This document shows, piece after piece, positions 3,337-58,971 of a stretch of DNA of 64,000 nucleotides (the stretch's first letter is position 1; the number at the start of each line of letters is the position of its first letter). The notes under the pieces are model-generated. The model did not search any database. It was not told the origin of the DNA and saw nothing but the letters and a program-made list of their open reading frames with translations. Made by a program: the position numbers and the translations under genes. The stretch comes from a virus. The stretch lies in the UHGV virus genome UHGV-0168042, one strand, 5' to 3'.

Positions 3337-4158
3337 TTAATAATGGTTAGCCATCCATTCAGATCTAATTGATGGGATAAACTCTCTATTGAGAAAGGGG
3401 ACGTACAGTGTGGTTGTCACATCTGCACCCTCCTTAGCGTTTTTGCAATGTTGCGGAGGCAGGATCAGTCGGCTTGTGCCTCTCTCAATAGACATTTTCA
3501 GGCCGTGGCGTAGGTCTTTTTGCATAAGCTGTATGCGAGCCACAAGCGGAGTAAATTCAGTTTCAAGCGCCATGCTTTCAATGATGTCAAAGCGTCGGTT
3601 AGCGGCCTGAGTGAAGTCCTCCGGATCGTCTTCAAGCGCCGTGCATAAAGCGAGTTCAGCAATTCGCATCCGTGCCACGCCAGCACTGTATTCGGGGCTT
3701 TTCATATCAGGAAGTGAAGCTCGCATTCGTTCAAGGAGTTCCGCGCCTTTCCCGGTTAATGGTTTAAGTATCCAGTCAGTTGGTACTCCATTTACTGGTA
3801 CGTTGGTTTTCACGTAAGGAGGTACAGTGAGTATTTCTACTGTTTGGGCCAGGTCGCTCAGGTTAATATCTGCATGATGCGTATTACCGCAGTGACTGCA
3901 CTCATAGGAGTAGGTCATTACTGCATCGGGGCGCGAATTAACAAATATCCACCAAAGAGCAGTTCTGCGATCCTGAACTGTCCAGTTAGCACTGTCGTTA
4001 ATTTCACCATCCTGCATAGAGTTAAGGTACTCTGTAGTAGTTGCCTCATCTTCTGCCGGGTTCAGGTCAGAATATTTCAGCGCATCCTTCACGGTAGGGG
4101 CGTGGAACTGAATTTCTGTCTCAGGACGGGAAGGCAATGGAAATTTTGGAATGTTCAA
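3337..4158 (-). CDS. Hypothetical phage virion/morphogenesis protein (273 aa)
   Basis: Complete ORF in track, co-oriented with and immediately upstream of the giant virion gene; no recognisable motif. Confidence 0.5.
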   Translation of the reverse strand: MNIPKFPLPSRPETEIQFHAPTVKDALKYSDLNPAEDEATTTEYLNSMQDGEINDSANWTVQDRRTALWWIFVNSRPDAVMTYSYECSHCGNTHHADINLSDLAQTVEILTVPPYVKTNVPVNGVPTDWILKPLTGKGAELLERMRASLPDMKSPEYSAGVARMRIAELALCTALEDDPEDFTQAANRRFDIIESMALETEFTPLVARIQLMQKDLRHGLKMSIERGTSRLILPPQHCKNAKEGADVTTTLYVPFLNREFIPSIRSEWMANHY

Positions 4159-12778: not shown

Positions 12779-12912
12779 GGTTAAGCCCTAAATTCGGGCG
12801 CGGCGTGAAGGTTCTTTTGACGGGCTAACAATACCTACTTTGTGATTTAGTCAATAGGTTTAGTAAAATAAAATATATTAACACGCATGTTGTTATGTGA
12901 TTTAATTTTAGT

Positions 12913-12926
12913 TTTCTAACACAAAT
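12913..12926. promoter_or_regulatory. TTTTCTAACACAAA operator-like motif, 10 bp upstream of the 12937 start
   Basis: Member of the dispersed TGTTAGAAA / TTTCTAACA family (see findings). Confidence 0.4.
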
Positions 12927-18627: not shown

Positions 18628-20289
18628 ATGAGTGAGGCAGAAGCCCGCCCGACTAACTTTATTCGTCAGATCATCGATGAAGATCTGGCCAGTGGTAAGC
18701 ACACCACAGTACACACCCGTTTCCCGCCGGAGCCGAATGGCTATCTGCATATTGGTCATGCGAAATCTATCTGCCTGAACTTCGGGATCGCCCAGGACTA
18801 TAAAGGCCAGTGCAACCTGCGTTTCGACGACACTAACCCGGTAAAAGAAGATATCGAGTACGTCGAGTCGATTAAAAACGACGTTGAATGGTTAGGTTTT
18901 CACTGGTCTGGTAACGTCCGTTACTCCTCCGATTATTTTGATCAGCTCCACGCCTATGCTGTTGAACTGATCAACAAAGGCCTGGCGTATGTTGACGAAC
19001 TGACGCCGGAACAGATCCGCGAATACCGCGGCACCCTGACGCAGCCGGGTAAAAACAGCCCGTACCGCGATCGCAGCGTTGAAGAGAACCTGGCGCTGTT
19101 CGAAAAAATGCGTGCCGGTGGTTTTGAAGAAGGTAAAGCCTGCCTGCGTGCGAAAATCGACATGGCGTCGCCGTTTATCGTGATGCGCGATCCGGTGCTG
19201 TACCGCATTAAGTTTGCTGAACACCACCAGACTGGCAACAAGTGGTGCATCTACCCGATGTACGACTTCACCCACTGCATCAGCGATGCGCTGGAAGGTA
19301 TTACGCACTCTCTGTGTACGCTTGAGTTCCAGGACAACCGTCGCCTGTACGACTGGGTGCTGGACAACATCACCATTCCTGTTCACCCGCGCCAGTACGA
19401 ATTCTCGCGCCTGAATCTGGAATACACTGTGATGTCCAAGCGTAAGCTGAACCTGCTGGTGACCGACAAGCACGTTGAAGGCTGGGATGACCCGCGTATG
19501 CCGACCATTTCCGGTCTGCGTCGTCGTGGTTACACTGCGGCTTCTATTCGTGAGTTCTGCAAACGCATCGGCGTGACCAAGCAGGACAACACCATTGAAA
19601 TGGCGTCGCTGGAATCCTGCATCCGTGAAGATCTCAACGAAAACGCCCCGCGCGCAATGGCGGTTATCGATCCGGTGAAACTGGTCATCGAAAACTATCA
19701 GGGCGAAGGCGAAATGGTCACCATGCCGAACCATCCAAACAAACCGGAAATGGGTAGCCGTCAGGTGCCGTTTAGCGGTGAGATTTGGATCGACCGCGCC
19801 GATTTCCGAGAAGAAGCTAACAAGCAGTACAAACGTCTGGTGCTGGGTAAAGAAGTGCGTCTGCGTAATGCTTACGTCATTAAGGCTGAACGCGTGGAGA
19901 AAGATGCCGAAGGTAATATCACCACCATCTTCTGTACTTATGACGCCGACACCTTAAGCAAAGATCCGGCAGATGGTCGTAAAGTGAAAGGCGTTATTCA
20001 CTGGGTGAGCGCGGCACATGCGCTGCCGGTTGAAATCCGCCTGTACGATCGTCTGTTCAACGTGCCGAACCCAGGTGCTGCGGATGATTTCCTGTCGGTG
20101 ATTAACCCGGAATCGCTGGTGATCAAACAAGGCTTTGCTGAACCGTCGCTGAAAGAAGCGGTAGCGGGTAAAGCATTCCAGTTTGAGCGTGAAGGTTATT
20201 TCTGCCTCGACAGCCGCCATTCTACGGCGGAAAAACCGGTATTTAACCGCACCGTTGGACTGCGTGATACCTGGGCGAAGTTAGGTTAA
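18628..20289 (+). CDS. glnS: Glutaminyl-tRNA synthetase (class I, HIGH/KMSK)
   Basis: 553-aa translation matches E. coli GlnRS along its length from recall ([24 protein letters not shown]..., HIGH at [17 protein letters not shown] motif); only the last residues appear to differ. Confidence 0.95.
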
Positions 20290-20314
20290 TAGGTATTTCG
20301 CCACATGAAAAAGT

Positions 20315-20340
20315 AAACGCCGCTACTGCGGCGTTTTTTA
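20315..20340 (+). terminator. Rho-independent terminator after glnS
   Basis: aaacgccgctactgcggcgtttttt. Confidence 0.7.
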
Positions 20341-22632
20341 CTTCATTATTGCAATTATATCGTTAGCAACTACACGTGTTGACGCCTTGCAGGAAACCGA
20401 CCGTCTGGCTGCCATATGATGTACTTTAAACCCGTTTCCTTCATATAGTTCACGGATGTTTGGTGCACCACTATTTGTAATCACTACCTTAGCGCCGCGC
20501 TGGTGGGCTTCCACCAATAGAGATACCAGCCGTTTCTGTTCGTCGAAACGGAAGCTATTTCCTGAATAACTGGTAAACCCTTCTGTATCCGGCAGCGGTT
20601 CATACGGCGGATCGCAAAAAATCACATCTCCTTCACCAGCCGCCTCGATGACGCCAGCAAAGTCACCTGATACAAAGGACGTGTTTTTGAGTACGTCATC
20701 AGCCAAAAATGCCTCCATCTCTGCATGTGGGAAGTAGGGCGCTTTGTATTTGCCATACCCCACGTTGAACTCGCCATTTTGGTTGTACCGCGTTACGCCA
20801 TTAAAACAGTGCCGATTAAGGTACAAAAAGGCGGCAGCATGATGTAGCTGGTCATACTTTCCTCTGTTAAATGCCTCACGCACTTCGAGGTAAGCGTCAG
20901 CGTTGTTGTAATTTTGGAAAAAACTATATGACAGCGTGACGAGCGAATGTCCTTCTCGCTGCAATGTCTGATAGAAGTTAATCAGGTCACCGTTAATATC
21001 ATTAAGCAGGTTGTGGCGAAATCCTGCATTCGTAAATACAGAACCGCCACCAACGAACGGTTCTATTAACCGCTTGCCGTGTGGTAGATGCTCAAGCACT
21101 GTAGGCAACTCTGAGAATTTACCGCCTACCCATTTGAAGATCGGACGCTCATATTCATCCGGAGTCCGGAGTTTTCTTGTGTAGGTAATGGTATTTATTG
21201 TTTTTGGCTGTTTAGCTTCCACAGTCGCAAGAATGCGACACCCAATCCATTGCATAACAGGAACTGCCATGCTGTTGCCAATCGCTTTGTAACGCGGCCC
21301 GTCAGCAGCGAGCATCGCGGCCTCTTCTTCGCTTAAATCTGGATAGTGATTGCGAAGGTATGCCAGTTCATCTGAGGAAATTGTTTTACGCTTTTCCGTA
21401 GGGATCAACGTATGCCCATCAGGAAAACCTTGCAGCCTTTCACATTCGACAGGGGTAAGACGGCGGACAGCTACTTCTGCGTTTCTTACTTCATAGCAAA
21501 CGGCTGTTGGATTTTGAGCCATTAGAGATGGTGAAGTATTCTTAGTTGCAGCATGTTGTGTACCGCTCATACGCTCAGGAAAAGCTAATGTAACAAGATG
21601 CTCATGGCTTTCTTGCTCACGCGCCCGCAATGTACCATGCCCCTCTGACCAAAAACCTGCTCCTGTGCTGCTAAAAACGGCAAGGTCAGTGGCATCTTTA
21701 AAGTCTCTTGCCTTTACTGTCGATGCGGTTTCATCGTCAATATATTCCCCAAATGCCGCCATCCTGAAAGCGTTTACGGCTTTCGTCGATTTCATACCGG
21801 GGGGCATGTCAGCGTGTAGGCATGGATTTAGGCTTTCGCCACTGATTGCAGCGCCATTTGCAATAATGGCGGAAGCGATTTCCTTCTTTTTTCGGCTCGG
21901 CGCAATATTCCGGCGCACGCCTTCGAACTCAAAAAGTATCGTTGCGGGATCGAGGTCTGTTCGAGCACTTGCGACAACAAACACGCGTCGGCGTCGTTGC
22001 GCCACTCCGAAGTATTGGGCATCAAGGATTCTCCAGGCCACTTTTCGCTGCGGTCCATAAATACAACCACACTGCGGCCACTTTGGAGCATGGCAACTGG
22101 TTTTGACATCCCACCGCCAGAACGCGTTACTTTTTCGCGATTCAGGTCGAGCACCTGGTTCGAATGGCGCATCTTCTCCAGCCAATCCGGCAAGGAAACA
22201 TCCGAAGGCGTTATCTGCCGATGACAAGACTCCTGGGACATTTTCCCAGACGATAACGGCTGGTTTGAGAAATGACTCAGCCCGTTTGTCGTCAATTGCA
22301 TTTGCAAGCTCCACATACTTTAAAGTTAGCGCGCCACGCTCATCATCAAGCCCACCACGTAATCCAGCGATACTGAATGCCTGACAAGGTGTTCCCCCGA
22401 CGAGCACATCAGGGGATTCGATTTCCCCAGCCAGGACTTTTTTGGCAAGTTTTGTCATATCGCCAAGGTTGGCGACATGGGGCCAGCGGTGCGCAAGAAC
22501 GGCAGATGGAAAAGGCTCGATTTCAGCAAACCACGCCGGACGCATACCCAACGGTTCCCAGGCAATGCTCGCTGCTTCAATTCCACTGCAAACTGAACCA
22601 TATCTAAGGTTAACGTTCTGCTTCACCACCAA
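20338..22632 (-). CDS. dmt: Bifunctional DNA methyltransferase: N-terminal C5-cytosine MTase domain fused to C-terminal Dam-like N6-adenine MTase domain (P1 Dmt-like)
   Basis: C5-MTase motifs GSVCSGIE (I), [12 protein letters not shown] (IV), ENV (VI), QRRRRVFVV (VIII), GNSMAVPV (X); then Dam-type KWVGGK, NRHCFNG and CDPPYEP. Confidence 0.85.
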
Positions 22633-23515
22633 CGGCCTCCACTAGCGAAGTGAACATCGCGGATAATTCAGCAGTAAACAGGATAAAGTCAGCGTCAAAT
22701 CGTTGCGCAACATCCTCTCGATCAATATCGTCGTTCTGGTCGTACAATTCGTCGCTGAACGACAAAGCCTTGATACTCATATCGTCATTCAGTCTGAAAA
22801 ATGCACGGTCTTGCCAGTTAACCGCAACTGTGGTTGCAACCTTACCAGCTTCTATATGACTCATGATCTCGTCGGATAGCAGGTCCACTTTTTTGCAGCG
22901 GACCGCGCCGCCATCATCAAGCAATGCTTTTAAGGTCGCTTCCTCACCGGCACGGAAACCGTTCGGGAAGCCATTTTTAATCCAGCCAGTGATGGTCAGT
23001 TCTAATGGGTCTTTCGGAGAGAAGGGGACAACGGGCAAGCTGCCAAGCGATTTCCGTAACAAAGCCAGCTGATCCTCTGCTTTTTTAGCACTGCTGGCCT
23101 CGACAAAAACCAGATGATTGCTTCGGTCTATCAGGATTTTAGCTACTGATTTTCTCGTGAAAGCGCGAGGAAGAAGAGAGTGAAGCACTTCATCCTTCAG
23201 CGAATCTTTTTCGGTCTTCTTCAGCTTTCTGTCTTGCTCTTCTTCAAGTTTCAGGATTTTTTTCTGTAACTCTTCTTTGAGTACTTGAGAAGGTAGGATT
23301 TTTTCCTCTCGTTTATGCTGCATCAGAAGAAAACCCTGGTATTCATGGGTGAGGTTGTCGCCAAGAACGGGGGTCCAACCAGCTTTAGCCATATCCTGAG
23401 AACCGCATGGGGTAAACACAAACTTGCTAAGGGCTGCATTTACTTCTGCAGTATCCCAGCTAACTTCGCGTGAAAGACGATAGATGAAGATATTTTTGAA
23501 AGCGACTGATCTCAT
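22610..23515 (-). CDS. rdgC: RdgC-like recombination-associated protein
   Basis: Collinear similarity to E. coli RdgC from recall ([73 protein letters not shown]). Confidence 0.85.
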
Positions 23516-23526
23516 GTCTCACCATA

Positions 23527-23560
23527 TGTGTTAGAAAATACATATTAATTATCTAACACA
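23527..23560. promoter_or_regulatory. Palindromic operator-like site TGTGTTAGAAAAT-N11-ATCTAACACA upstream of the rdgC-dmt operon
   Basis: Near-perfect inverted half-sites; the minus-strand copy sits about 12 nt upstream of the rdgC ATG. Confidence 0.45.
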
Positions 23561-23574
23561 AATGGGTGCATTTT

Positions 23575-24228
23575 CTATCCTTTCTTGAAATCGAAGTTGC
23601 TAGCAGTGGCCTGAAAGGTTCCTCCTGCCTTGAAAGCTATGTCTCCGTTAGCGGTGACAGCAATATTTTCCCCTTTAACATTGATGTTGTTGGCTGATTT
23701 GACGTTAACACTCCCTCCTGCATTCACGATTACATCAGCCGGACCAATGATATATATCTGCCCGGACTCATTCATGCCAATCCTTGAGCCTGCAGCCGTA
23801 TTGGCAATTTCATAGCCGCCACCAGCAGTTCGTACTTCAAGAATATTGTTGCGGTGAATAACGAAGTCTTTCGTTGCTGAGATTTGGGGGCGGGGAGGCG
23901 CTCCATCTACTTCCGGCGGCGTCCAGCCGTTGCCTTTGCCAGATGCTTCTGGTGCAACGTTTGGAATTCCTCCCGGTGCATCCTGAGCGGCACCAACTAT
24001 CATTGGGCGTCTGGTGTCTATTCGACCGTTAACATCTAAATAAGGAAACTCTACCCAGACCAGGTCACCTTTGACTGTGGGTACAAAAGCGTTTCCGATG
24101 GGTAACAGGTATTCCGCCCAGGGTAGATCGTCATCAGGAACGCCATTCCAGTCAGGTAAAACACGGACTTGAGCACGCATAAGCCCTGCCGGGTGCACAG
24201 TTCCAACAATTTGCGCTCTACGCTTCAT
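23575..24228 (-). CDS. Baseplate central spike (gpV-like)
   Basis: N-terminal OB-fold-like region, then Gly-rich repetitive region (NAGGSVNVKSANNINVKGENIAVTANGDIAFKAGG) typical of spike/needle proteins. Confidence 0.6.
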   Translation of the reverse strand: MKRRAQIVGTVHPAGLMRAQVRVLPDWNGVPDDDLPWAEYLLPIGNAFVPTVKGDLVWVEFPYLDVNGRIDTRRPMIVGAAQDAPGGIPNVAPEASGKGNGWTPPEVDGAPPRPQISATKDFVIHRNNILEVRTAGGGYEIANTAAGSRIGMNESGQIYIIGPADVIVNAGGSVNVKSANNINVKGENIAVTANGDIAFKAGGTFQATASNFDFKKG

Positions 24229-25205
24229 TTGTTCGGCACTCCCAATATCATTCGTGTTGTGTAGCCTACGCGGTCTTCAAAGTGCGCAACATTTTTTACT
24301 ATCAGCTTACGGGGCATTGATTCATCAATGCGGTTTTCCTGGTCATAGCGGTATACGATAATCTCTATCACCATCCCCGGTTTTATATCAGGATTGCCTG
24401 CGACTTCTATATCCATTTTGGGGACGAGAGACAGCTGCATATTGCGAAGAGTTTCCATATCAGAGTCGGATATATAACGCACTGGGAGTGAGCTATCGCC
24501 ATATTCGACGTAGCCATCGGTCATGGAATACCCAACAAAACGATATTGATTCTTTGCTGTTGTCGCATGTTCCTGTTGGAGTAGGCGCATTTTGGACAAA
24601 GTGTATTCTGCTTTAGGGTTATTCCCCTCGTAGGTAAATGATGGCGTTTGCTTCATCAGATCAGCCAGGGTGTAAAAGTTAAATTCCCCCCGGCATACCC
24701 AACATAATGCACCTTTGTCTCGCGCTATCTCCGAAAGCATTTTTGACGGTTTGTCACCGGCATTCAGATGATATGTAACTGCGCGTTTTAGCACGCTGCT
24801 GGTAATTTTAAGCTTGCCGGAATATGCCTTGAATATAGCGTCTGGTGTTTTGTTGGTATGTAAATTTGTGCGCGGGGAGGGGATCTTAAACCTGCGCACG
24901 TCTTCACTGACAGCAATAACGGTAACAACATCACCAGCCAGCATTGCAGACGTAACAAAGAAATCTGTTTTAAAAGTGCCTGCATTACCGTTTGGATCGC
25001 CCATTTCAGCCACCAGCGATGCACCGTATTTGGCTTTCCAGTCATCAATTACGGTGCCGGTAGCGTCATGAATTTCCAGTTTTAGCAAAGGGGCTTTGAG
25101 GCTGGTTTTTTCTACATATACTGCGGTAAAAATCCAGTCTCGTGGCACTTTGTTATCGTTAATGAGCACTGACTGTAGAAAATATTGTTGTAACTCCTGG
25201 GCCAC
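24225..25205 (-). CDS. Baseplate hub-like / tail protein (326 aa)
   Basis: Positional: directly upstream of the spike, overlapping its start by 4 nt. Confidence 0.4.
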   Translation of the reverse strand: MAQELQQYFLQSVLINDNKVPRDWIFTAVYVEKTSLKAPLLKLEIHDATGTVIDDWKAKYGASLVAEMGDPNGNAGTFKTDFFVTSAMLAGDVVTVIAVSEDVRRFKIPSPRTNLHTNKTPDAIFKAYSGKLKITSSVLKRAVTYHLNAGDKPSKMLSEIARDKGALCWVCRGEFNFYTLADLMKQTPSFTYEGNNPKAEYTLSKMRLLQQEHATTAKNQYRFVGYSMTDGYVEYGDSSLPVRYISDSDMETLRNMQLSLVPKMDIEVAGNPDIKPGMVIEIIVYRYDQENRIDESMPRKLIVKNVAHFEDRVGYTTRMILGVPNK

Positions 25206-26926: not shown

Positions 26927-27229
26927 ATGACCAAAAAAATTAACATAAAGGATTTCAGGGATGCGTGGCTTGATGATTTTTTTGAATTTTCAACACCACA
27001 TAGAAAGATACCTCCTGATATTCATATGACATTGTCACGGAAGTTGGACATTATCAATGCCGCAACTACCTGTAAGGATTTAAGATCACCACCAGGTAAT
27101 CGGTATGAGGAACTGTCAGGGAAGCTAAATGGCTATTCATCAGTAAGGGTGAATAAGCAATATAGGTTAATTTTTAAGTGGGTTAACGGAAAGGCCGAGG
27201 ACTTGTATCTCGACCCTCACAAATACTAA
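26927..27229 (+). CDS. higB: HigB-family toxin (RelE/ParE fold, plasmid maintenance killer protein)
   Basis: 100-aa protein with C-terminal pattern (YRLIFKWVNGKAEDLYLDPH) resembling HigB toxins; toxin-first gene order typical of hig loci. Confidence 0.75.
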   Translation: MTKKINIKDFRDAWLDDFFEFSTPHRKIPPDIHMTLSRKLDIINAATTCKDLRSPPGNRYEELSGKLNGYSSVRVNKQYRLIFKWVNGKAEDLYLDPHKY

Positions 27230-27299: not shown

Positions 27300-27638
27300 A
27301 TGAAACAGGCAACCAGAAAACCGACGACCGTAGGTGATATCCTGCTGTACGAATACCTGGAGCCGTTAGAGCTGAAGATCAACGAGTTAGCAGAAATACT
27401 TCATGTTCATCGTAACACCGTAAGTGCTCTTGTTAATAATAATCGTAAGCTAACGATGGATATGGCATATCGCCTGGCAAAAGCATTCGATACTTCTGTA
27501 GATTTTTGGATTAATCTCCAGACCGCAGTAGACCTGTGGGAAGTCGAAAATGACATGCGCGTTCAGGAAGAGTTAAGTCGTATCAATACTGCTGAAAAAT
27601 TTATTTCTCAGCGGAACCTGAATAAAAAAGCAGCCTGA
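27300..27638 (+). CDS. higA: HigA antitoxin (XRE-family HTH)
   Basis: HTH segment INELAEILHVHRNTVSALVNNNRKLTMDMAYRLAKAFDTSVDFWINLQ matches the HigA antidote family. Confidence 0.8.
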   Translation: MKQATRKPTTVGDILLYEYLEPLELKINELAEILHVHRNTVSALVNNNRKLTMDMAYRLAKAFDTSVDFWINLQTAVDLWEVENDMRVQEELSRINTAEKFISQRNLNKKAA

Positions 27639-34670: not shown

Positions 34671-35001
34671 TTTGACTCCCCCAGCGCGAATAAAGAATGC
34701 AGATTATCGCGTGAGTGGTGGACGACGAGTGATGGGAAAAGACTGTAGTTGTTCATAGTGTAGTGACTCCTTGCTTTCGGAGCCGCCATCGACTGTTCCA
34801 CGGTCTGGTGGCGGCGCAATAAAGGCTGGAACACCGTGAGTCAACGGGGGCTTTTCAGCCACCTATATTGCACCGCCATAGGTATGGCGGGGGCAATAAT
34901 ACGAAAAACTAAACAGTTTGTCTCAAAAAGTTGACCGGTGTGCCAATCGGTAGTGAATGTACATCGGAGAAATTTACAATTCAACTTAAAATGTTAGAAA
35001 A

Positions 35002-35580
35002 CTAATTTATTAATTCAATCGCCATCTGATACAACGCCATTTCATCGGCATTGTGCCGTATGAAATCTGCTTTTCCGCCTATTTTTCCATCAGCATGAAC
35101 AGGGACCAGCCAGGGATATTGTTCTCGGACCTCGGCTGGCGCTGCGTACTGGTGGTGCCATTTACACAAAGGGAGGACATATTTATGTGCGTTCTCTGCC
35201 GTTCTCCCGAAGATATGGTGCAGGGATACCACTGGGCTATGTTGCCCGTGAATATGGCAGGCAATGCAGGGGAGAGTACCGATAGCGGTCTGTATCCGGC
35301 GTTCATCGGCTGTGAGTGATCTGCCCTTCAGGCCGCGTGACGTGCGTGTTTTTTTGGGCGGAGCGGATACAGCTTTATCTTTTCTCCGCTGTTCATATTG
35401 CTTTGCTTTTTCAATTTTCTTTTGCCGATATTCAGGCGATGCGGCTTTTTCTCTCGCTCGCTGCTGCTGGCGTTGAGCTTGTTGAAGGCGCTTTGCCCTT
35501 TGTTCCTCTCGCCAGGCTGGGTCAGCCAATTTTTGCATGGCTTTTTGTCTCTGTTTCTCCCAATAGCTCTGTTTCTGCAT
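35002..35580 (-). CDS. ref: Ref-like HNH endonuclease (recombination enhancement function)
   Basis: HNH core LPCIACHIHG...VSLHHIFGRTA...LPLCKWHHQYAAPAEVREQYPWLVPVHADG matches P1 Ref as recalled; basic N-terminal region. Confidence 0.75.
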   Translation of the reverse strand: MQKQSYWEKQRQKAMQKLADPAWREEQRAKRLQQAQRQQQRAREKAASPEYRQKKIEKAKQYEQRRKDKAVSAPPKKTRTSRGLKGRSLTADERRIQTAIGTLPCIACHIHGQHSPVVSLHHIFGRTAENAHKYVLPLCKWHHQYAAPAEVREQYPWLVPVHADGKIGGKADFIRHNADEMALYQMAIELIN

Positions 35581-35619: not shown

Positions 35620-35663
35620 GATCAAAACAGTTAGATATTCAAAATTGATTTTCTAACACAAAA
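35620..35663. promoter_or_regulatory. Operator-like palindrome (GTTAGATATTC ... TTTTCTAACACAAAA) upstream of ref and of the divergent 35698 operon
   Basis: Motif family member in the divergent intergenic region. Confidence 0.4.
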
Positions 35664-40880: not shown

Positions 40881-40916
40881 CACGTTAGAACATTGATTTT
40901 AGTTTTCTAACATATT
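40881..40916. promoter_or_regulatory. Operator-like palindrome CGTTAGAACATTGATTTTAGTTTTCTAACA upstream of the 40955 operon
   Basis: Motif family member. Confidence 0.4.
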
Positions 40917-40954
40917 ATTTTACCGATCGGAACAAAACAGAGTCGGTATGCATT

Positions 40955-48296: not shown

Positions 48297-48528
48297 TGAT
48301 GACCGGCGAGCTTTATTTTAAAATGTTTCTCGTTAGGAGTGCAGTCAAAATTTTTGGGCAATACAGGATCGAGAGGAATGCGATTAGGCATAGCCAATTC
48401 CTTATTAACTGATTGGCAACGAGGTTGCGCTGATCCGTTGGTGATGAATAGTAGCAAAGCGCACAAAATCATCTGCGGTGGTTGATGTACATAACGCGTT
48501 TGCACCAAAGGTGTCTCTTTAATGTATA

Positions 48529-48544
48529 CTGTATAAATGAACAG
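48529..48544. promoter_or_regulatory. LexA (SOS) box CTGTATAAATGAACAG upstream of humD
   Basis: Exact CTGT-N8-ACAG with AT-rich spacer, about 22 bp upstream of the humD start. Confidence 0.75.
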
Positions 48545-48565
48545 TATTGTTGAGGTGAAAACGCT

Positions 48566-48955
48566 ATGGGCTTCCCTTCTCCTGCGGCGGATTATGTTGA
48601 AAGCAGAATTTCTCTTGATCAGCAACTAATCAGGCATCCATCAGCGACATACTTCATGCGGGCGGCAGACAGCCATCACCGTGAGGGAATATTGCAGGGT
48701 GCTTTGCTGGTGGTTGATTCTTCGCTTACTCCAGTTGATGGTTCGCTGCTTGTGTGCGCTATGGAGGGTGAATATCGCATAAAGAGATACAGGAAGTATC
48801 CGCGCCAGCACCTGGAGGATTTAAGCACCGGGAAGAAAGAGGCGTTACCAGTAGATGACGATGGATGCACGGGAAGTAATGCTGTTTTTGGTGTGATCAC
48901 TCATGTCATCAATGATGCCCGAAGTGGGGAGTTTGATGATTGTCCGGTTATTTAA
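48566..48955 (+). CDS. humD: UmuD'-like S24 peptidase-domain protein (HumD-like)
   Basis: Collinear with the UmuD C-terminal domain (GFPSPAADYVE...HPSATYF...GDIVIA/SLLVCAMEGE...VFGVITHVI); lacks the N-terminal cleavable part, as P1 HumD. Confidence 0.8.
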   Translation: MGFPSPAADYVESRISLDQQLIRHPSATYFMRAADSHHREGILQGALLVVDSSLTPVDGSLLVCAMEGEYRIKRYRKYPRQHLEDLSTGKKEALPVDDDGCTGSNAVFGVITHVINDARSGEFDDCPVI

Positions 48956-52647: not shown

Positions 52648-52720
52648 AGCACCCTCCTAAATAGGCGAGGGTACTTTACAGCAAAGGCGTTAATCTAAAA
52701 AGATGTGTTAGAAATTTAAT

Positions 52721-53749
52721 TTACGAATCCATCAGGCGGCTATTAGCCCCCACAGACACGCCGCCACGGCGAAGATACCGCATAAGTGTTTCCGGTTTCT
52801 TCCATGTTCCTTCCTGCATGATCTCCACCATAGACACCTGCTTTTCAGCCATATCAATAGCGGCCCCGACGCGTGCACTATGCCCGGTCCACGTCCGGTA
52901 TCTTCCTTTGTTTGGCGTAGCATCTCTTTTATTCAGCAACACCCAGGCGTCGCTGAATATTTTCTCCATTGCAGGTGCAGTAAGGGGCGTTGTCGTGATC
53001 CTGGCCTTATTGCTACGGTGTATCGGCGGGAACAGCACTGCGTCAGGATGTTCGCGAAGCCCGGAAACATCCAGCCAGTCATTCAGCACAGCGGTAGTGC
53101 GACGGGAAAGCACCTTATCAAGCCCGGCGGCGGTCGTTATTGTCTTCGTGTGTGAAATATGTAGCGTGACAGTGTCACCTGTTTGGTCCAGATCTCCTAC
53201 ACGAATACGCGAGATTTCCGACATACGCATCAGCGTATTGTATGCAACAAAGAGAAAAGCCCGGTTGCGCAGGTCCACCAGCCGTTCTGACCTGGACAAC
53301 AGGACGTCGAGCAGTTTCAGATCGTCCCACCGCAGCGGTATAGCCTGGCCTGTTCGTTCGCCTTTTTCCGTTGCCGCTTCACGCCGGATGCGCCGCATAG
53401 CCAGAGAAACACTTTTATCATCCGAAAGTGGCGGAAGGCCACAATGCGAAAGCAGCATGTTAAGCATGGCGTAGTGCTTATCAATGGTGGTCGAAGCCAG
53501 ATCAGCATCATGCAGCTGGAGAAAATACTCGCGGGCCATCTCTGGTGAGATCGGGAACCAGGCGAGCTGGCGAGCGTGACACCATCTCGCCCAGGAGTGA
53601 AACACTAACCGGAGATCGCGCAAAGTATTCGGCGCGTAAGCCCCCCGGTCATTCATGAACCGCATAAAGTTTTCTGCGGCCTCCTGGTACTCTTTGCCAA
53701 TGTTGCGCAGAAAACCACCGGAGCTGCCAGAGATAATTAATTCACTCAT
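52721..53749 (-). CDS. cre: Cre-like tyrosine site-specific recombinase
   Basis: Collinear similarity to P1 Cre as recalled (WFPISPEMAREYFLQL, NRAFLFVAYNTLMRMSEISRIRV, WTGHSARVGAAIDMA, catalytic Y in LMRYL). Confidence 0.85.
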   Translation of the reverse strand: MSELIISGSSGGFLRNIGKEYQEAAENFMRFMNDRGAYAPNTLRDLRLVFHSWARWCHARQLAWFPISPEMAREYFLQLHDADLASTTIDKHYAMLNMLLSHCGLPPLSDDKSVSLAMRRIRREAATEKGERTGQAIPLRWDDLKLLDVLLSRSERLVDLRNRAFLFVAYNTLMRMSEISRIRVGDLDQTGDTVTLHISHTKTITTAAGLDKVLSRRTTAVLNDWLDVSGLREHPDAVLFPPIHRSNKARITTTPLTAPAMEKIFSDAWVLLNKRDATPNKGRYRTWTGHSARVGAAIDMAEKQVSMVEIMQEGTWKKPETLMRYLRRGGVSVGANSRLMDS

Positions 53750-53933: not shown

Positions 53934-54114
53934 TAAAATGGCGATTTTTTTTAATCCATCACAGATTGATTCTGACCAGTAACACGTTGCCTTCATGGTC
54001 TTTAATTTGCGAAGTGTGGTTTATACAGTTGGTTTTCTAAAATTGATGACAAAAAATCACAGCTCTATCCTTTACTCACTCTGTTATTCGACATAAATTT
54101 GTCATAGTAATTTT

Positions 54115-54126
54115 ATGTTAGAAAAC
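54115..54126. promoter_or_regulatory. Operator-like motif ATGTTAGAAAAC about 20 bp upstream of the 54144 start
   Basis: Motif family member; a second partial copy at 54034-54044. Confidence 0.4.
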
Positions 54127-54143
54127 TAAATCGAGTAGGAATA

Positions 54144-55181
54144 ATGAGTAAGAAGTCGATCGAGAAAGAGTACAAACGGTTCCTGCAAACCGCTGAACGG
54201 TGGAAAGAGCTGGTGGTCGCAAACTCTGTTTTCCATGATACCAGTTATGCTGGCGAGGAATTCCGCCATGTTGCATTAACGCATGACCAAAACATATTAG
54301 AAGAAGCTGAAAAATGTCTTGCTGAATGGAAAGCCTTCGTTGACATGTGTCGCGATGCCGACGGCAAAGCGTCGAACATTGTTGAGTCTGTATATTCTCC
54401 GATCCCATTCATCATTGAGGACACCAATCAAAGCACGCATGTTGTTGTGCAAAGCGCTACAACAACACGTACATTTACACGTGAGCAATTGCTCAAAAAA
54501 TACGACAAAATCATAAAGAAAAGCCTGAAAAATAGGGTTTTTTCTCAAATCGTAGGTGCTCTTGAAGAAGAACAGCGCTTCTTTGAAGCTGAGCCTGAAG
54601 GCGAGATCTACCGGGCGCGTAAAGAGGCATATACAGATGTTGTGCTGACAACAAACATCGAAGGCAGCAATGCCCTTTCTCGCTTTAGAGTTGGCGCACA
54701 TGGCGCATTGGTTTTCGCAAGACTACCGAAGACAACGATCCCCGTTGTCAATAATGTTGGTGAACGCCGGAGCATTACAATTTATTCTGGCGTCGAATCG
54801 GTACCTTGCAGCCTTCTCGGCGATTTTAACTTATATCGTGTTCGTGACCTGGAAAAACACCAGCCAAGCTACGTTGCGAAGTCGTACATCTTAAGGAACA
54901 TCGATATTCGCAACGAAAACCTTAAGCAGAAATCCGCTAAGATGCTGGAGGATGCCGATCCGGCCATTCGCCATATCATTGAACGTAAGATTCGTACATC
55001 GCGTGAAGCAATGGCAAGGCTGGATAAAATGGATCTGGAATTGTTAGACGTAATGATGGCCTCTGGAGACGACCTGACCGGCATCAAACTGAATGAAGCG
55101 CGTAAAAAATACGGCAAAGCAATCGAAGAACGTTACGGATACACATTCCCCCAAACGCAGCACGCCGCAAAGCTCTGGTAA
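54144..55181 (+). CDS. Hypothetical protein (345 aa); occupies the position held by the c1 repressor in P1
   Basis: Lies between the lox-like site and pacB with an operator-like motif in its leader; no sequence-level support for repressor function. Confidence 0.45.
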   Translation: MSKKSIEKEYKRFLQTAERWKELVVANSVFHDTSYAGEEFRHVALTHDQNILEEAEKCLAEWKAFVDMCRDADGKASNIVESVYSPIPFIIEDTNQSTHVVVQSATTTRTFTREQLLKKYDKIIKKSLKNRVFSQIVGALEEEQRFFEAEPEGEIYRARKEAYTDVVLTTNIEGSNALSRFRVGAHGALVFARLPKTTIPVVNNVGERRSITIYSGVESVPCSLLGDFNLYRVRDLEKHQPSYVAKSYILRNIDIRNENLKQKSAKMLEDADPAIRHIIERKIRTSREAMARLDKMDLELLDVMMASGDDLTGIKLNEARKKYGKAIEERYGYTFPQTQHAAKLW

Positions 55182-56718: not shown

Positions 56719-58082
56719 TAATCATCCTCCGGCGGTTCTATCGCGATATCATCATCTCCGGCGTCATACCCTGCATCAGATGCATCATAATCACCGTAAA
56801 TTTCAGCCGTTGCCGAAGGGTCAATATCCAGCTCTTCGTCGTTGGCCTCGAATTCTCCAGCTTTACGCTCGCCATTGCGGTCGTAATCTCCGCAACCCAA
56901 TTCTTCAACAATGGTTGCCACATCCGCCCGGCGCTCTGCCAGCCATAGCGGATGGTTAGCCTGAAGCGTTGCAAACTCCCTTGCCTCTTTGTCCAGCTGT
57001 TCATCATCAACATCATTGACGTCAGAAACAGGTGGTTCGAGAAGAGTGATAGCTTTCGCCGCGCGCGCCGCGAGGATAGCCGGGACGCTGACACCCTGGC
57101 GCTCGATGTATTCAGCAACACCGATATCATCCAGTTCCTCGCGCTCACGCATACGTATAGCGGCGGCGATAACTCTGGCTGCGCGTGCGTCAGCGCCAAT
57201 GCGATATTCAATCTCTTTGCCACGCTGTTCGGCCTGTAGGCGTGCTAATTCGAGTTTTTCTCTGGCCTCAGCCTCTTTGAATGCTTGCTGGCGAGCGCTC
57301 TGACGAAGCTTTTCATCCCCCTGTCGCAGCTTTTGTTCGGACTGATATATAGCTGCCAACCTACTGATAAAATCATTCATGTAGTAGGCCGCGTCACTGA
57401 TTAGACCGAGAAGGCGCTGCCCAGGGTGCATTCCTTCTGGCTCTTTATCGCCCAAGGTGTCTATTTCCGCCTGTAGACGTTCGGCCTCCTGATCAACAAT
57501 GCTTTGATACTGAAGTGCGCGCTCTTGCGCCATTTGAATTGCTAACCGCAGGTGTTCTTCTGCGCCGTTCTTCATCATATCGCGAGCCACATTCGTAGTT
57601 GGCAATGTGGCACGCTGCACAGCACCGTCAGGGATCATTGCAGAAGATCCCTCAATTTTTGGGGCACTTTTATCTTCTTCGGGGATCATTTTCGCCATTT
57701 TTTCGCGCAATGATCTCCTGACGGATTCTTTTATCTCATTGTTATTATTTAAATTATTTTCATGATCCGAAGTTTTCTTTCTCGGCATACTTCGGAAAGA
57801 ACCTGCGCCCTGCGAATTGTCAATTTCTGTAAATTTTGTTTTTTCTGCACCCTCTTCCTGCTTTTTTGTTGCTCTTCCTGCCCGTTTTTTTTCAGGTGAT
57901 TTGGTGCTTTTTTTTGTTGTCTTTACCTGCGACCGCACCTCATTTTTTTTCATATTGAGATGCTTTCTGGCTGTATTGAAGCTAAGGCCATGCTCCTCAC
58001 AGTATTCCTTTACAGTGATCCCTTTTTCTTCACGCAACGCTATAAAGCGGGCGCGGTGCTCCTCCCAATTAACCAGACTCAT
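56718..58082 (-). CDS. pacA: Terminase small subunit (PacA-like) with N-terminal HTH
   Basis: N-terminal HTH (GITVKEYCEEHGLSFNTARKHL), acidic C-terminus; contains a GATC-rich cluster at 57630-57770. Confidence 0.55.
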   Translation of the reverse strand: MSLVNWEEHRARFIALREEKGITVKEYCEEHGLSFNTARKHLNMKKNEVRSQVKTTKKSTKSPEKKRAGRATKKQEEGAEKTKFTEIDNSQGAGSFRSMPRKKTSDHENNLNNNNEIKESVRRSLREKMAKMIPEEDKSAPKIEGSSAMIPDGAVQRATLPTTNVARDMMKNGAEEHLRLAIQMAQERALQYQSIVDQEAERLQAEIDTLGDKEPEGMHPGQRLLGLISDAAYYMNDFISRLAAIYQSEQKLRQGDEKLRQSARQQAFKEAEAREKLELARLQAEQRGKEIEYRIGADARAARVIAAAIRMREREELDDIGVAEYIERQGVSVPAILAARAAKAITLLEPPVSDVNDVDDEQLDKEAREFATLQANHPLWLAERRADVATIVEELGCGDYDRNGERKAGEFEANDEELDIDPSATAEIYGDYDASDAGYDAGDDDIAIEPPEDD

Positions 58083-58471
58083 AAAGCAACACCACGCTTT
58101 TTAACGGCGGCATTCCACAGCTTATTCGCCATGTCCACCAGCTCTCGTTGCTCTTTTCGCGCCTGTTCGACTGATTTCCTGCTACAGTTTTTAACCAGTA
58201 AACTGCCGTATTCAGGGGTTCGCCCACGCACCTTGAACTGATATCCGTTCAGGCCATGCAACCAGTATTTTCGTGGGTAAACACGATCATCAAGCTCACA
58301 GATTGCCCTGCTTGAACGAACAAAATGACGAATGATGTTAGTTACACTTACTCGTGAAACATGGAGATGAGGGTATTTTTCTTTGGCGAGAGTGGTAATT
58401 TCAGTGACTGTCAGATAGCAGTCAGCCCTGATCATGATATCCGCAATTTCTGCGCTGCTGATTTGTTCCAT
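58079..58471 (-). CDS. Hypothetical protein (130 aa); position matches the late promoter activator gene of P1
   Basis: Positional only (immediately upstream of pacA, operator palindrome in leader). Confidence 0.35.
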   Translation of the reverse strand: MEQISSAEIADIMIRADCYLTVTEITTLAKEKYPHLHVSRVSVTNIIRHFVRSSRAICELDDRVYPRKYWLHGLNGYQFKVRGRTPEYGSLLVKNCSRKSVEQARKEQRELVDMANKLWNAAVKKRGVAL

Positions 58472-58547
58472 TAATCCCCCGGCAGGAAATGACCGAGGGG
58501 ATGATAATGAGAATGTTAAAACTGTATAGACTGGTAAAAAGATGATT

Positions 58548-58582
58548 ATATTAGAAAATTAATATTAAATACCTAACACTAC
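58548..58582. promoter_or_regulatory. Operator-like palindrome TATTAGAAAATTAATATTAAATACCTAACACT
   Basis: Motif family member upstream of the 58471 start. Confidence 0.4.
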
Positions 58583-58971
58583 CAGCGAGACAAACGAACA
58601 ACATGTTTCACTTTTGCGATCCACTGTCCGCGATAACTATTGATTACGGCCTGTGCCAGCTTCAAATTGGCTTCAAAATCAGCCTTACTACCATCAGACT
58701 CCACCAGCATTCCTCCATCTATTTCTGGTAAACATAGATAATCCTGCTCAACCTGCAGCGGCATTGATGGCTCTCTGAATGGCGTTACTTGCTCTGCTTT
58801 CCAGCGAAATCTAACCCTCATCCCCCTGGTGGTCATTACTAGATAGCCTGTTATAGTGCTTTTATGGCCCACATCAGTACGCGTGGCATTGCATGACACG
58901 ATCTTACAGTTAGCGATAGACCACTCCATATTGGTGGCCTGTTGAGTGCTTAATTTGGTAGTCCCGTACAT
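58579..58971 (-). CDS. Hypothetical protein (130 aa)
   Basis: Complete ORF. Confidence 0.4.
   Translation of the reverse strand: MYGTTKLSTQQATNMEWSIANCKIVSCNATRTDVGHKSTITGYLVMTTRGMRVRFRWKAEQVTPFREPSMPLQVEQDYLCLPEIDGGMLVESDGSKADFEANLKLAQAVINSYRGQWIAKVKHVVRLSRW

Follow-up and report, generated by a model that had tools for sequence, protein, structure and literature searches.

A D6-like phage-plasmid carries the hrdC(rdgC)-dmt module of the P1 family behind a predicted bivalent operator of its own C1 repressor

The virus genome UHGV-0168042 was analysed over a stretch of 64,000 nucleotides (nt), hereafter the window, in which a gene for an RdgC-family protein (rdgC) lies directly upstream of, and overlaps, a gene for a fused DNA methyltransferase (dmt). 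Within the P1 family of phage-plasmids, the window is of the D6-like kind, and its rdgC-dmt pair represents the hrdC-dmt module already known from phages of this family, the linkage and the repressor control of which are both on record. It is proposed here, as an explanation that is probably correct as a whole, that the pair forms an early hrdC(rdgC)-dmt operon under the C1 repressor and that an RdgC-like ring would restrain RecA during lytic growth. The regulatory part of this explanation is well supported by the predicted sites described below; the biochemical role is extrapolated by analogy from the Escherichia coli protein RdgC. A sequence-only reading of the same DNA had treated the arrangement as a curiosity of this element, a view that had to be given up in light of the P1 (AF234172) and D6 records, since gene and operon make up an ordinary module that had been annotated before in phage-plasmids of the P1/D6 type.

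The RdgC-family protein and its descent

The presence of an RdgC homologue, which the sequence-only reading had recognised, was confirmed by model matches over the full length of the protein. The Pfam RdgC model PF04381 covers residues 6-298 of 301 (E 6e-102, 341 bits against a cut-off of 25), the NCBIfam model NF001462 scores 386.5 bits against a cut-off of 330, and a full-length alignment was obtained with the solved ring of E. coli RdgC (PDB 2OWL, E 7.5e-111), the Pseudomonas aeruginosa structure 2OWY being matched as well. The enterobacterial chromosomal equivalog model NF001460 was not reached (419 bits against a cut-off of 501), and therefore the protein is not a host-type orthologue. 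Its identity amounts to 60% with RdgC of E. coli K-12, 55% with HrdC of P1 and 89% with orf65 of D6. The residues that matter in the E. coli protein are located in the fingertip (R97, K98, K100 and K101), the gate (R118 and F120) and the horseshoe interface (Q212, E218, H222 and K227) (PMC2965237), and pairwise alignment shows nine of these ten to be kept in the window protein, as R96, K97, K99, K100, R117, F119, E216, H220 and K225. The identical protein is already present in databases as 'recombination-associated protein RdgC' (P0001, 312 member sequences).

The gene is under strong purifying selection and is no pseudogene. In comparisons with 15 distinct relatives, the pairwise ratio of nonsynonymous to synonymous divergence (dN/dS) was 0.05-0.14 where dS was measurable, with dS reaching values above 2, and the length is constant at 301 codons in every complete relative. 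The closest chromosomal RdgC proteins, taken from one genome per species, are all 59-61% identical, with Pantoea, Serratia, Photorhabdus, Yersinia, Citrobacter and Klebsiella among their sources, and across every Enterobacterales family in the sample the chromosomal proteins stand at the same distance from the window protein (59-62%); P1 HrdC shares 61% identity with E. coli RdgC. A neighbour-joining tree rooted on Pseudomonas RdgC is divided into three deep branches, namely the P1-type HrdC proteins, the chromosomal proteins of Enterobacterales and a diverse D6-type clade, although it does not separate one from two acquisitions for the P1-type and D6-type genes. All members of the D6-type clade are 301 amino acids long and are found in Escherichia, Salmonella, Klebsiella, Raoultella, Enterobacter and Gibbsiella, on phage-plasmids of about 90 kilobases (kb). 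This deep clade of its own, together with the equidistance from the chromosomal proteins, indicates that rdgC belongs to an old phage-plasmid lineage and therefore does not derive from a recent host capture. Additionally, the rdgC segment gave 83 matches in 5,426 complete E. coli genomes, every one of them on a plasmid of about 90 kb and not on a chromosome, and 120 plasmids of this kind were found in PLSDB, with Escherichia, Salmonella, Shigella and Enterobacter as hosts.

The comparison with chromosomal rdgC, which the sequence-only reading had asked for, was thus carried out; the gene is neither the pseudogene nor the silent fragment that would have refuted that reading. That the window rdgC is a decaying or recently captured chromosomal fragment is a notion for which similarity to the host gene alone speaks, and it is extremely unlikely; it is refuted by the dN/dS values and the constant length, as well as by the equidistance from chromosomal RdgC, the deep clade on phage-plasmids and the location of all the E. 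coli matches on plasmids. One relative departs from the general pattern: in L010 (Salmonella plasmid pSa1423-90k, NZ_MK356557.1, about positions 3740-3850), the start region of rdgC is altered, with three extra T in the spacer of the palindrome described below and no in-frame ATG. Few genes are annotated in this record, which may be a degraded copy or a sequence of low quality.

The rdgC-dmt transcription unit

The dmt product contains both methyltransferase domains (Pfam PF00145 and PF02086; TIGR00675 dcm and TIGR00571 dam) and is 84% identical to P1 Dmt; its best match in PADLOC is 'orphan methyltransferase', and PADLOC returned no defence-system match for the RdgC protein. The dmt gene itself is a mosaic, especially at 21242-22602, with a cytosine-methylase part that is 95.7% identical to P1 dmt at the nucleotide level, and a Dam part that is D6-like, as is rdgC. 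The sequence-only reading had reported a 23-nt overlap between rdgC and the dmt-like gene. The overlap is real, and its extent depends on the start codon of dmt, being 23 nt only with TTG 22632 and 20 or 17 nt with GTG 22629 or 22626. Given that a GGAGG Shine-Dalgarno sequence lies within the 3' end of rdgC, 6 and 9 nt ahead of these two GTG codons, respectively, an overlap of 17-20 nt is as likely as one of 23 nt. The D6 record annotates an overlap of 17 nt, and in P1 and RCS47 the overlap measures 4 nt. At the level of open reading frames (ORFs), the -23 overlap was found in every complete relative for which downstream sequence was available, and the downstream ORFs of the relatives, of 228, 313, 720 or 764 amino acids, all lie behind this same overlap.

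It is near certain, from the arrangement of the sequence, that rdgC and dmt are co-transcribed, as the sequence-only reading had stated for rdgC and the fused methyltransferase. This follows from the overlapping ORFs, from the absence of any other promoter-like site in the stretch scanned and from the single terminator beyond dmt. In a consensus scan of the minus strand from the palindrome to the last codons of dmt, no second promoter-like site was found, the sole further match being located at the 3' end of dmt. The strong bidirectional terminator downstream of dmt ends both the rdgC-dmt unit and the convergent glnS gene. The coordinates of the unit and of the other features discussed here are collected in Table 1.

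Table 1. Features of the rdgC-dmt region and of the presumed C1 regulon in the window (PWM, position weight matrix; operators, promoter and terminator are predictions).
Feature	Position	Strand	Description
rdgC/hrdC homologue	22610-23515	-	putative RdgC-family DNA-binding protein of 301 amino acids; Pfam PF04381, PHROG 724
dmt	20338-22632	-	fused C5-cytosine and N6-adenine (D12, Dam) methyltransferase of 764 amino acids; start TTG 22632 or GTG 22629/22626
Transcription unit	promoter/operator 23577-23522; rdgC 23515-22610; dmt 22632/22626-20338; terminator 20336-20315	-	
Palindrome	23522-23565	both	arms 23522-23539 and 23548-23565, 18 nt, 89% complementary, 8-nt centre
Operator half-sites in the palindrome	23524-23544 and 23543-23563	+ and -	PWM scores 26.0 and 28.1 bits
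Sigma-70 promoter of rdgC-dmt	23548-23577	-	-35 TAGAAA, 18-nt spacer, -10 GATAAT (consensus scan)
Bidirectional intrinsic terminator	20315-20336	both	nine-pair stem, 6 GC pairs, T-runs on both strands
Second bivalent operator	35624-35663	both	upstream of ref; same arm spacing as the rdgC site
ref-like RecA-dependent nuclease gene	35002-35580	-	Pfam PF16786
c1 half-site	54111-54131		PWM hit directly upstream of c1
c1, D6-type prophage repressor	54144-55181	+	98% nucleotide identity to the D6 immC region, where the ORF is annotated c1
Third bivalent operator	58544-58583	both	upstream of lpa; same geometry
lpa	58079-58471	-	Pfam PF25716 BPP1_LPA

A predicted C1 operator over the rdgC promoter

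The region between tail gene 5 and rdgC contains a palindrome whose arms are built from a motif that recurs elsewhere in the window. The 9-mer TGTGTTAGA is present in six exact copies in the window against about 0.5 expected, and it forms part of a recurring half-site of about 19 base pairs (bp), TGTGTTAGAAAAyTAAAA, for which the aligned copies give the consensus TTATGTGTTAGAAAACTAAAA. A position weight matrix trained on nine sites, with hits counted at scores of at least 10 bits, yielded 15 hits in the window versus 0-5 in shuffled sequence. These hits are found directly upstream of c1 (54111), beside dre (52701-52721) and upstream of ref (35624/35643), rdgC (23524/23543) and lpa (58544/58563), and the inverted pair at lpa was detected by the matrix even though it lay outside the training set. 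At four places the hits form an inverted pair, and the spacing of the pair is the same in all four. The half-site also recurs with high scores at 12906-12926, 34987-35007, 40897-40917, 63127-63147 and 63283-63303. The presumed sites, at c1, dre, ref, lpa and rdgC-dmt, thus occur at the homologues of P1 c1, cre, ref, lpa and dmt. In P1, C1 operators are present at ref and lpa as well. Those at c1/cre and at dmt are annotated in the P1 record. With the Ref-like nuclease, a second RecA-related function is placed in the same presumed regulon.

Among relatives whose flanking sequence is about 68% identical, the cores TGTGTTAGATAATT and TTTTCTAACACA are invariant and the central spacer is free to vary, which amounts to a phylogenetic footprint. 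The palindrome pattern had no match in genome contigs; in IMG/VR it was recovered at 21 loci, and it stood at the junction of gene 5 and rdgC in every locus for which the site was extracted. The predicted rdgC-dmt promoter is the sole sigma-70-like site on the minus strand of the gap, and its -10 hexamer lies inside the upstream half-site. At that place the operator consensus has GAAAAC, from which the hexamer GATAAT deviates through the T that creates the -10; it is nevertheless invariant in all four lineages represented among the palindromes. The interpretation that suits these features best is a bivalent operator at which the D6-type C1 repressor would bind, and the repressor-type palindrome that the sequence-only reading had described is upheld, being a real inverted repeat of a recurring half-site with a predicted -10 inside it. 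The motif shares about 9 of 17 positions with the P1 consensus ATTGCTCTAATAAATTT and does not conform to it, as would suit a heteroimmune C1. A different operator specificity is to be expected, because the C1 protein of the window is only 21% identical to that of P1.

A LexA box was also considered as a means of control. None was found near rdgC, and the sole good one in the window, TACTGTATAAATGAACAGTA at 48527-48546 (+), is located directly upstream of a gene for an S24 peptidase (HumD/UmuD-like; ORF 48566-48955, +). Control of rdgC by LexA and the SOS response was rejected for this reason.

Proposed regulation and alternative explanations

According to the explanation preferred here, two C1 molecules bound to the palindrome would cover the -10 hexamer and the transcription start of the sigma-70 promoter, and rdgC-dmt would be shut off as long as the element is a plasmid prophage, until infection or induction relieves the repression. 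The RdgC protein would then dimerise into a ring that holds duplex DNA in a clamp without sequence specificity, and this ring would restrain RecA filament activity, and possibly also the phage's own RecA-dependent nuclease Ref, during replication of the phage DNA, while Dmt would methylate the newly made phage DNA. Ring formation, DNA clamping and restraint of RecA are activities described for E. coli RdgC (PMC2965237, PMC11077077). A role centred on RecA is attractive because Ref, whose nuclease activity depends on RecA, shares the presumed regulon. Because the repressor that acts on this operator would be C1 of the phage itself, no expression of the operon is expected from a resident prophage, and host recombination and SOS could therefore be modulated at most during lytic growth or fresh infection. 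Expression in the lytic phase is in keeping with findings on P1vir, in which hrdC and dmt are induced during growth (bioRxiv 10.64898/2025.12.28.696737). The sequence-only reading had suggested that the element modulates host SOS and recombination together with DNA methylation; this suggestion is supported in part, in that the gene and its regulation were borne out, whereas the timing is to be revised, being probably lytic rather than lysogenic, and an effect on the host is hypothetical.

Several observations weigh against this explanation or against parts of it. The assignment of the palindrome to the D6-type C1 is inferred from a predicted site. We know of no RecA-related phenotype for any phage RdgC copy. 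P1 hrdC was non-essential in a CRISPR interference screen and is dispensable for plaque formation (PMC10695390). Moreover, Q212 of E. coli RdgC is replaced by V210 in the window protein, as it is by V in D6, the Q being retained in P1 HrdC; this horseshoe-interface residue is of consequence in E. coli, where the Q212A mutant is inactive in vivo (PMC2965237), and the interface may therefore differ in the window protein. The tail operon (genes 7-24-6-5) is located upstream on the same strand, with gene 5 ending 59 nt before rdgC, and a scan of the minus strand of this 59-nt gap detected no intrinsic terminator. Late read-through from the tail genes into rdgC-dmt is therefore plausible, and expression of the pair need not be purely C1-controlled. 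Finally, the outer flanks of the palindrome co-vary to an extent that goes beyond what a pure operator would require. On an ungapped, core-anchored alignment of the palindrome from four lineages, flank covariation was 0.257 versus 0.071 after shuffling, a value that none of 500 shuffles reached, and did not exceed 0.116 in slid controls.

The flanks concerned read CCATT on the left and AATGG on the right in the D6 type, CCAAT and ATTGG in a second lineage, (T)CAA and TTG(G) in a third, and GCAAAAC and GTTTTGC in a fourth. In the window they occupy 23522-23526 and 23561-23565, and across the relatives L001, L007-L009 and L011-L031 all five variable pairs are compensatory. Such symmetry invites the view that the palindrome acts mainly as a nucleic-acid hairpin, whether as an element for the 3' end or the stability of the tail-operon RNA, as a translational gate on the ribosome-binding site of rdgC, or as a DNA cruciform. 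The RNA is predicted to fold with -19.4 kcal/mol (z -3.6), each of the five outer pairs of the stem has changed on both sides in a compensatory way among the four lineages, the 3' end of the stem abuts or overlaps the Shine-Dalgarno sequence GGTGAG of rdgC, and flanks of this kind are absent from the other bivalent sites. However, the invariant part of the palindrome is precisely the half-site that recurs at c1, dre, ref and lpa, a scan of 20000-24500 against Rfam gave only sub-threshold chance matches, and the covariation comes from four independent lineages only, in which such symmetry could also arise in the absence of selection, if template switching corrected a quasi-palindrome. An intrinsic terminator was rejected as the form of such a hairpin, since its AT-rich stem is followed by UGAGAC and by no U-run. 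It is thus improbable that the hairpin is the main function of the palindrome, and the co-varying flanks could reflect either a second function at the hairpin level, for instance on late read-through transcripts of the tail operon, or neutral quasi-palindrome correction. Much less probable still is an identity with the late promoters of P1, at which the Lpa protein would bind a 9-bp inverted repeat. P1 late promoters have been described with a conserved repeat of that length (PMC10695390) and the palindrome does come after late tail genes, but P1 has annotated -22 boxes, AAGTTACTT and AAATGACTA, at a distance of 4 nt ahead of the -10, that bear no relation to TGTGTTAGA...TCTAACACA, and the genes that the motif precedes (c1, dre, ref and lpa) are early or immunity genes and not structural operons. 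In a comparison with the boxes of P1 LPs and LPsit, no 9-bp -22 box resembling AAGTTACTT, 4 nt upstream of a -10, was found in 23516-23580, and this identity was rejected on account of the difference between the boxes and the palindrome.

Other alternatives concern the protein and the time of its action. The element copy might be expressed in the carrier cell and continuously damp host RecA, SOS and recombination alongside methylation. The protein is a close, full-length homologue of RdgC with interface and fingertip residues kept, C1-controlled promoters can leak, and SOS-linked genes are found elsewhere on the element. Against this, a strong predicted bivalent operator of the resident repressor is placed over the predicted -10 and start, the gene has no LexA box, and in P1 the homologous operon is annotated as C1-controlled, with its genes induced in lytic growth (bioRxiv 10.64898/2025.12.28.696737), all of which leaves continuous damping unlikely. 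Slightly less credit is given to a role like that of lambda RexA, in which a protein of the RdgC fold would bind DNA and bias the switch between lysis and lysogeny, or exclude other phages, without acting on RecA. The structure of RexA is homologous to that of RdgC, and RexA binds DNA non-specifically and biases this switch (PMC11077077); the possibility was raised by Casjens and colleagues for the RdgC homologues of lambdoid phages (PMC12315714); the differences between RexA and the window protein are set out in the comparison below. More speculative, and no better placed than continuous damping, is an extension of the preferred explanation in which RdgC would be a dedicated early-lytic regulator of RecA paired with Ref, its rings would decide at which sites RecA and Ref act, and the palindrome, unusually perfect and with co-varying flanks, would double as an RNA or DNA hairpin gating rdgC on late read-through transcripts. 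The early operon under C1, with an RdgC ring that would restrain RecA in lytic growth, is accordingly retained as the working explanation.

The P1 and D6 records already cover this gene as well as its coupling to dmt and the control by C1, so that the analysis presented here in the main bears out what had been annotated before. It adds two things of modest weight, namely an explicit operator motif with a predicted regulon map for the D6-type repressor, and a regulatory argument for a function in the lytic phase rather than in lysogenic conversion. The physiological role of RdgC is unclear even in E. coli, and a conserved phage copy represents a compact genetic handle on it, all the more as phage rdgC is selectively maintained and tied to a methylase in two deeply diverged lineages, the P1 type and the D6 type. 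A small residual interest attaches to the D6-type operator map and to the co-varying flanks of the palindrome.

The element and neighbouring genes

The gene order of glnS, methylase, rdgC and tail genes 5, 6, 24 and 7, with HigB/HigA adjoining, is that of orf62-orf69 of phage D6, and the D6 immC genes dre, c1, pacB, pacA and lpa are present in the window with 98% nucleotide identity to D6. A full-length glnS, encoding glutaminyl-tRNA synthetase, is carried by the phage-plasmid at 18628-20289 (+), convergent with dmt, and D6-like elements are known to carry this gene as cargo (D6 orf62; PMC6799933). A HigB/RelE-like toxin and a HigA-like antitoxin are encoded at 26927-27229 and 27300-27638 (+), between blocks of tail genes, in the same way as orf70/orf71 of D6.

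Comparison with known systems

Among the closest known systems is D6 (GenBank MF356679), in which orf65 carries the note 'similar to P1 gene hrdC'. The window shares with D6 the genome type and the position of the gene among glnS, the methylase or methylases, rdgC and the baseplate gene 5; the RdgC protein is 89% identical to orf65 and the intergenic palindrome differs by 1 nt. The two elements differ in the methylase, since D6 has a split cytosine-methylase-like ORF of 228 amino acids and a separate Dam (orf64/orf63), whereas the window has a P1-like fusion of 764 amino acids. Additionally, the 3' third of rdgC is mosaic.

In P1 (GenBank AF234172), an operon uhr-hrdC-dmt is annotated, preceded by Pdmt, a sigma-70 promoter, and by Odmt (earlier name Op68), an operator of C1, and the same hrdC-dmt pair is carried by RCS47 and P7-like plasmids (PMC5786510). 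As in P1, the RdgC-family gene of the window is located directly upstream of and overlapping dmt, behind a putative C1-type operator and a predicted sigma-70 promoter, and the same regulon logic appears to apply, with ref, lpa, c1 and cre. However, the RdgC proteins are only 55% identical and belong to separate clades. The surroundings differ as well: P1 hrdC is preceded by uhr and is located next to upfC/repA, whereas the window rdgC follows tail gene 5, which ends 59 nt upstream, and no uhr ORF was found before it. In the window, the predicted operator, TGTGTTAGAAAAyTAAA, is bivalent and placed over -10/+1, whereas that of P1, ATTGCTCTAATAAATTT, is monovalent and placed at -35.

In comparison with chromosomal RdgC of E. 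coli (b0393; PDB 2OWL), the window protein is 60% identical over its full length and keeps the gate, the fingertip and most of the horseshoe residues. It differs from the E. coli protein in being borne by a plasmid or phage, in its presumed control by a repressor, in its linkage to a methylase and in the change of Q212 to V. Finally, lambda RexA is likewise a phage-encoded protein of the RdgC fold, and a non-specific DNA binder (PMC11077077). Nevertheless, RexA is related to the window protein by fold only and is expressed in lysogens from the repressor transcript, together with its partner RexB, whereas the window rdgC is presumably repressed by the repressor and is found without a RexB-like partner.

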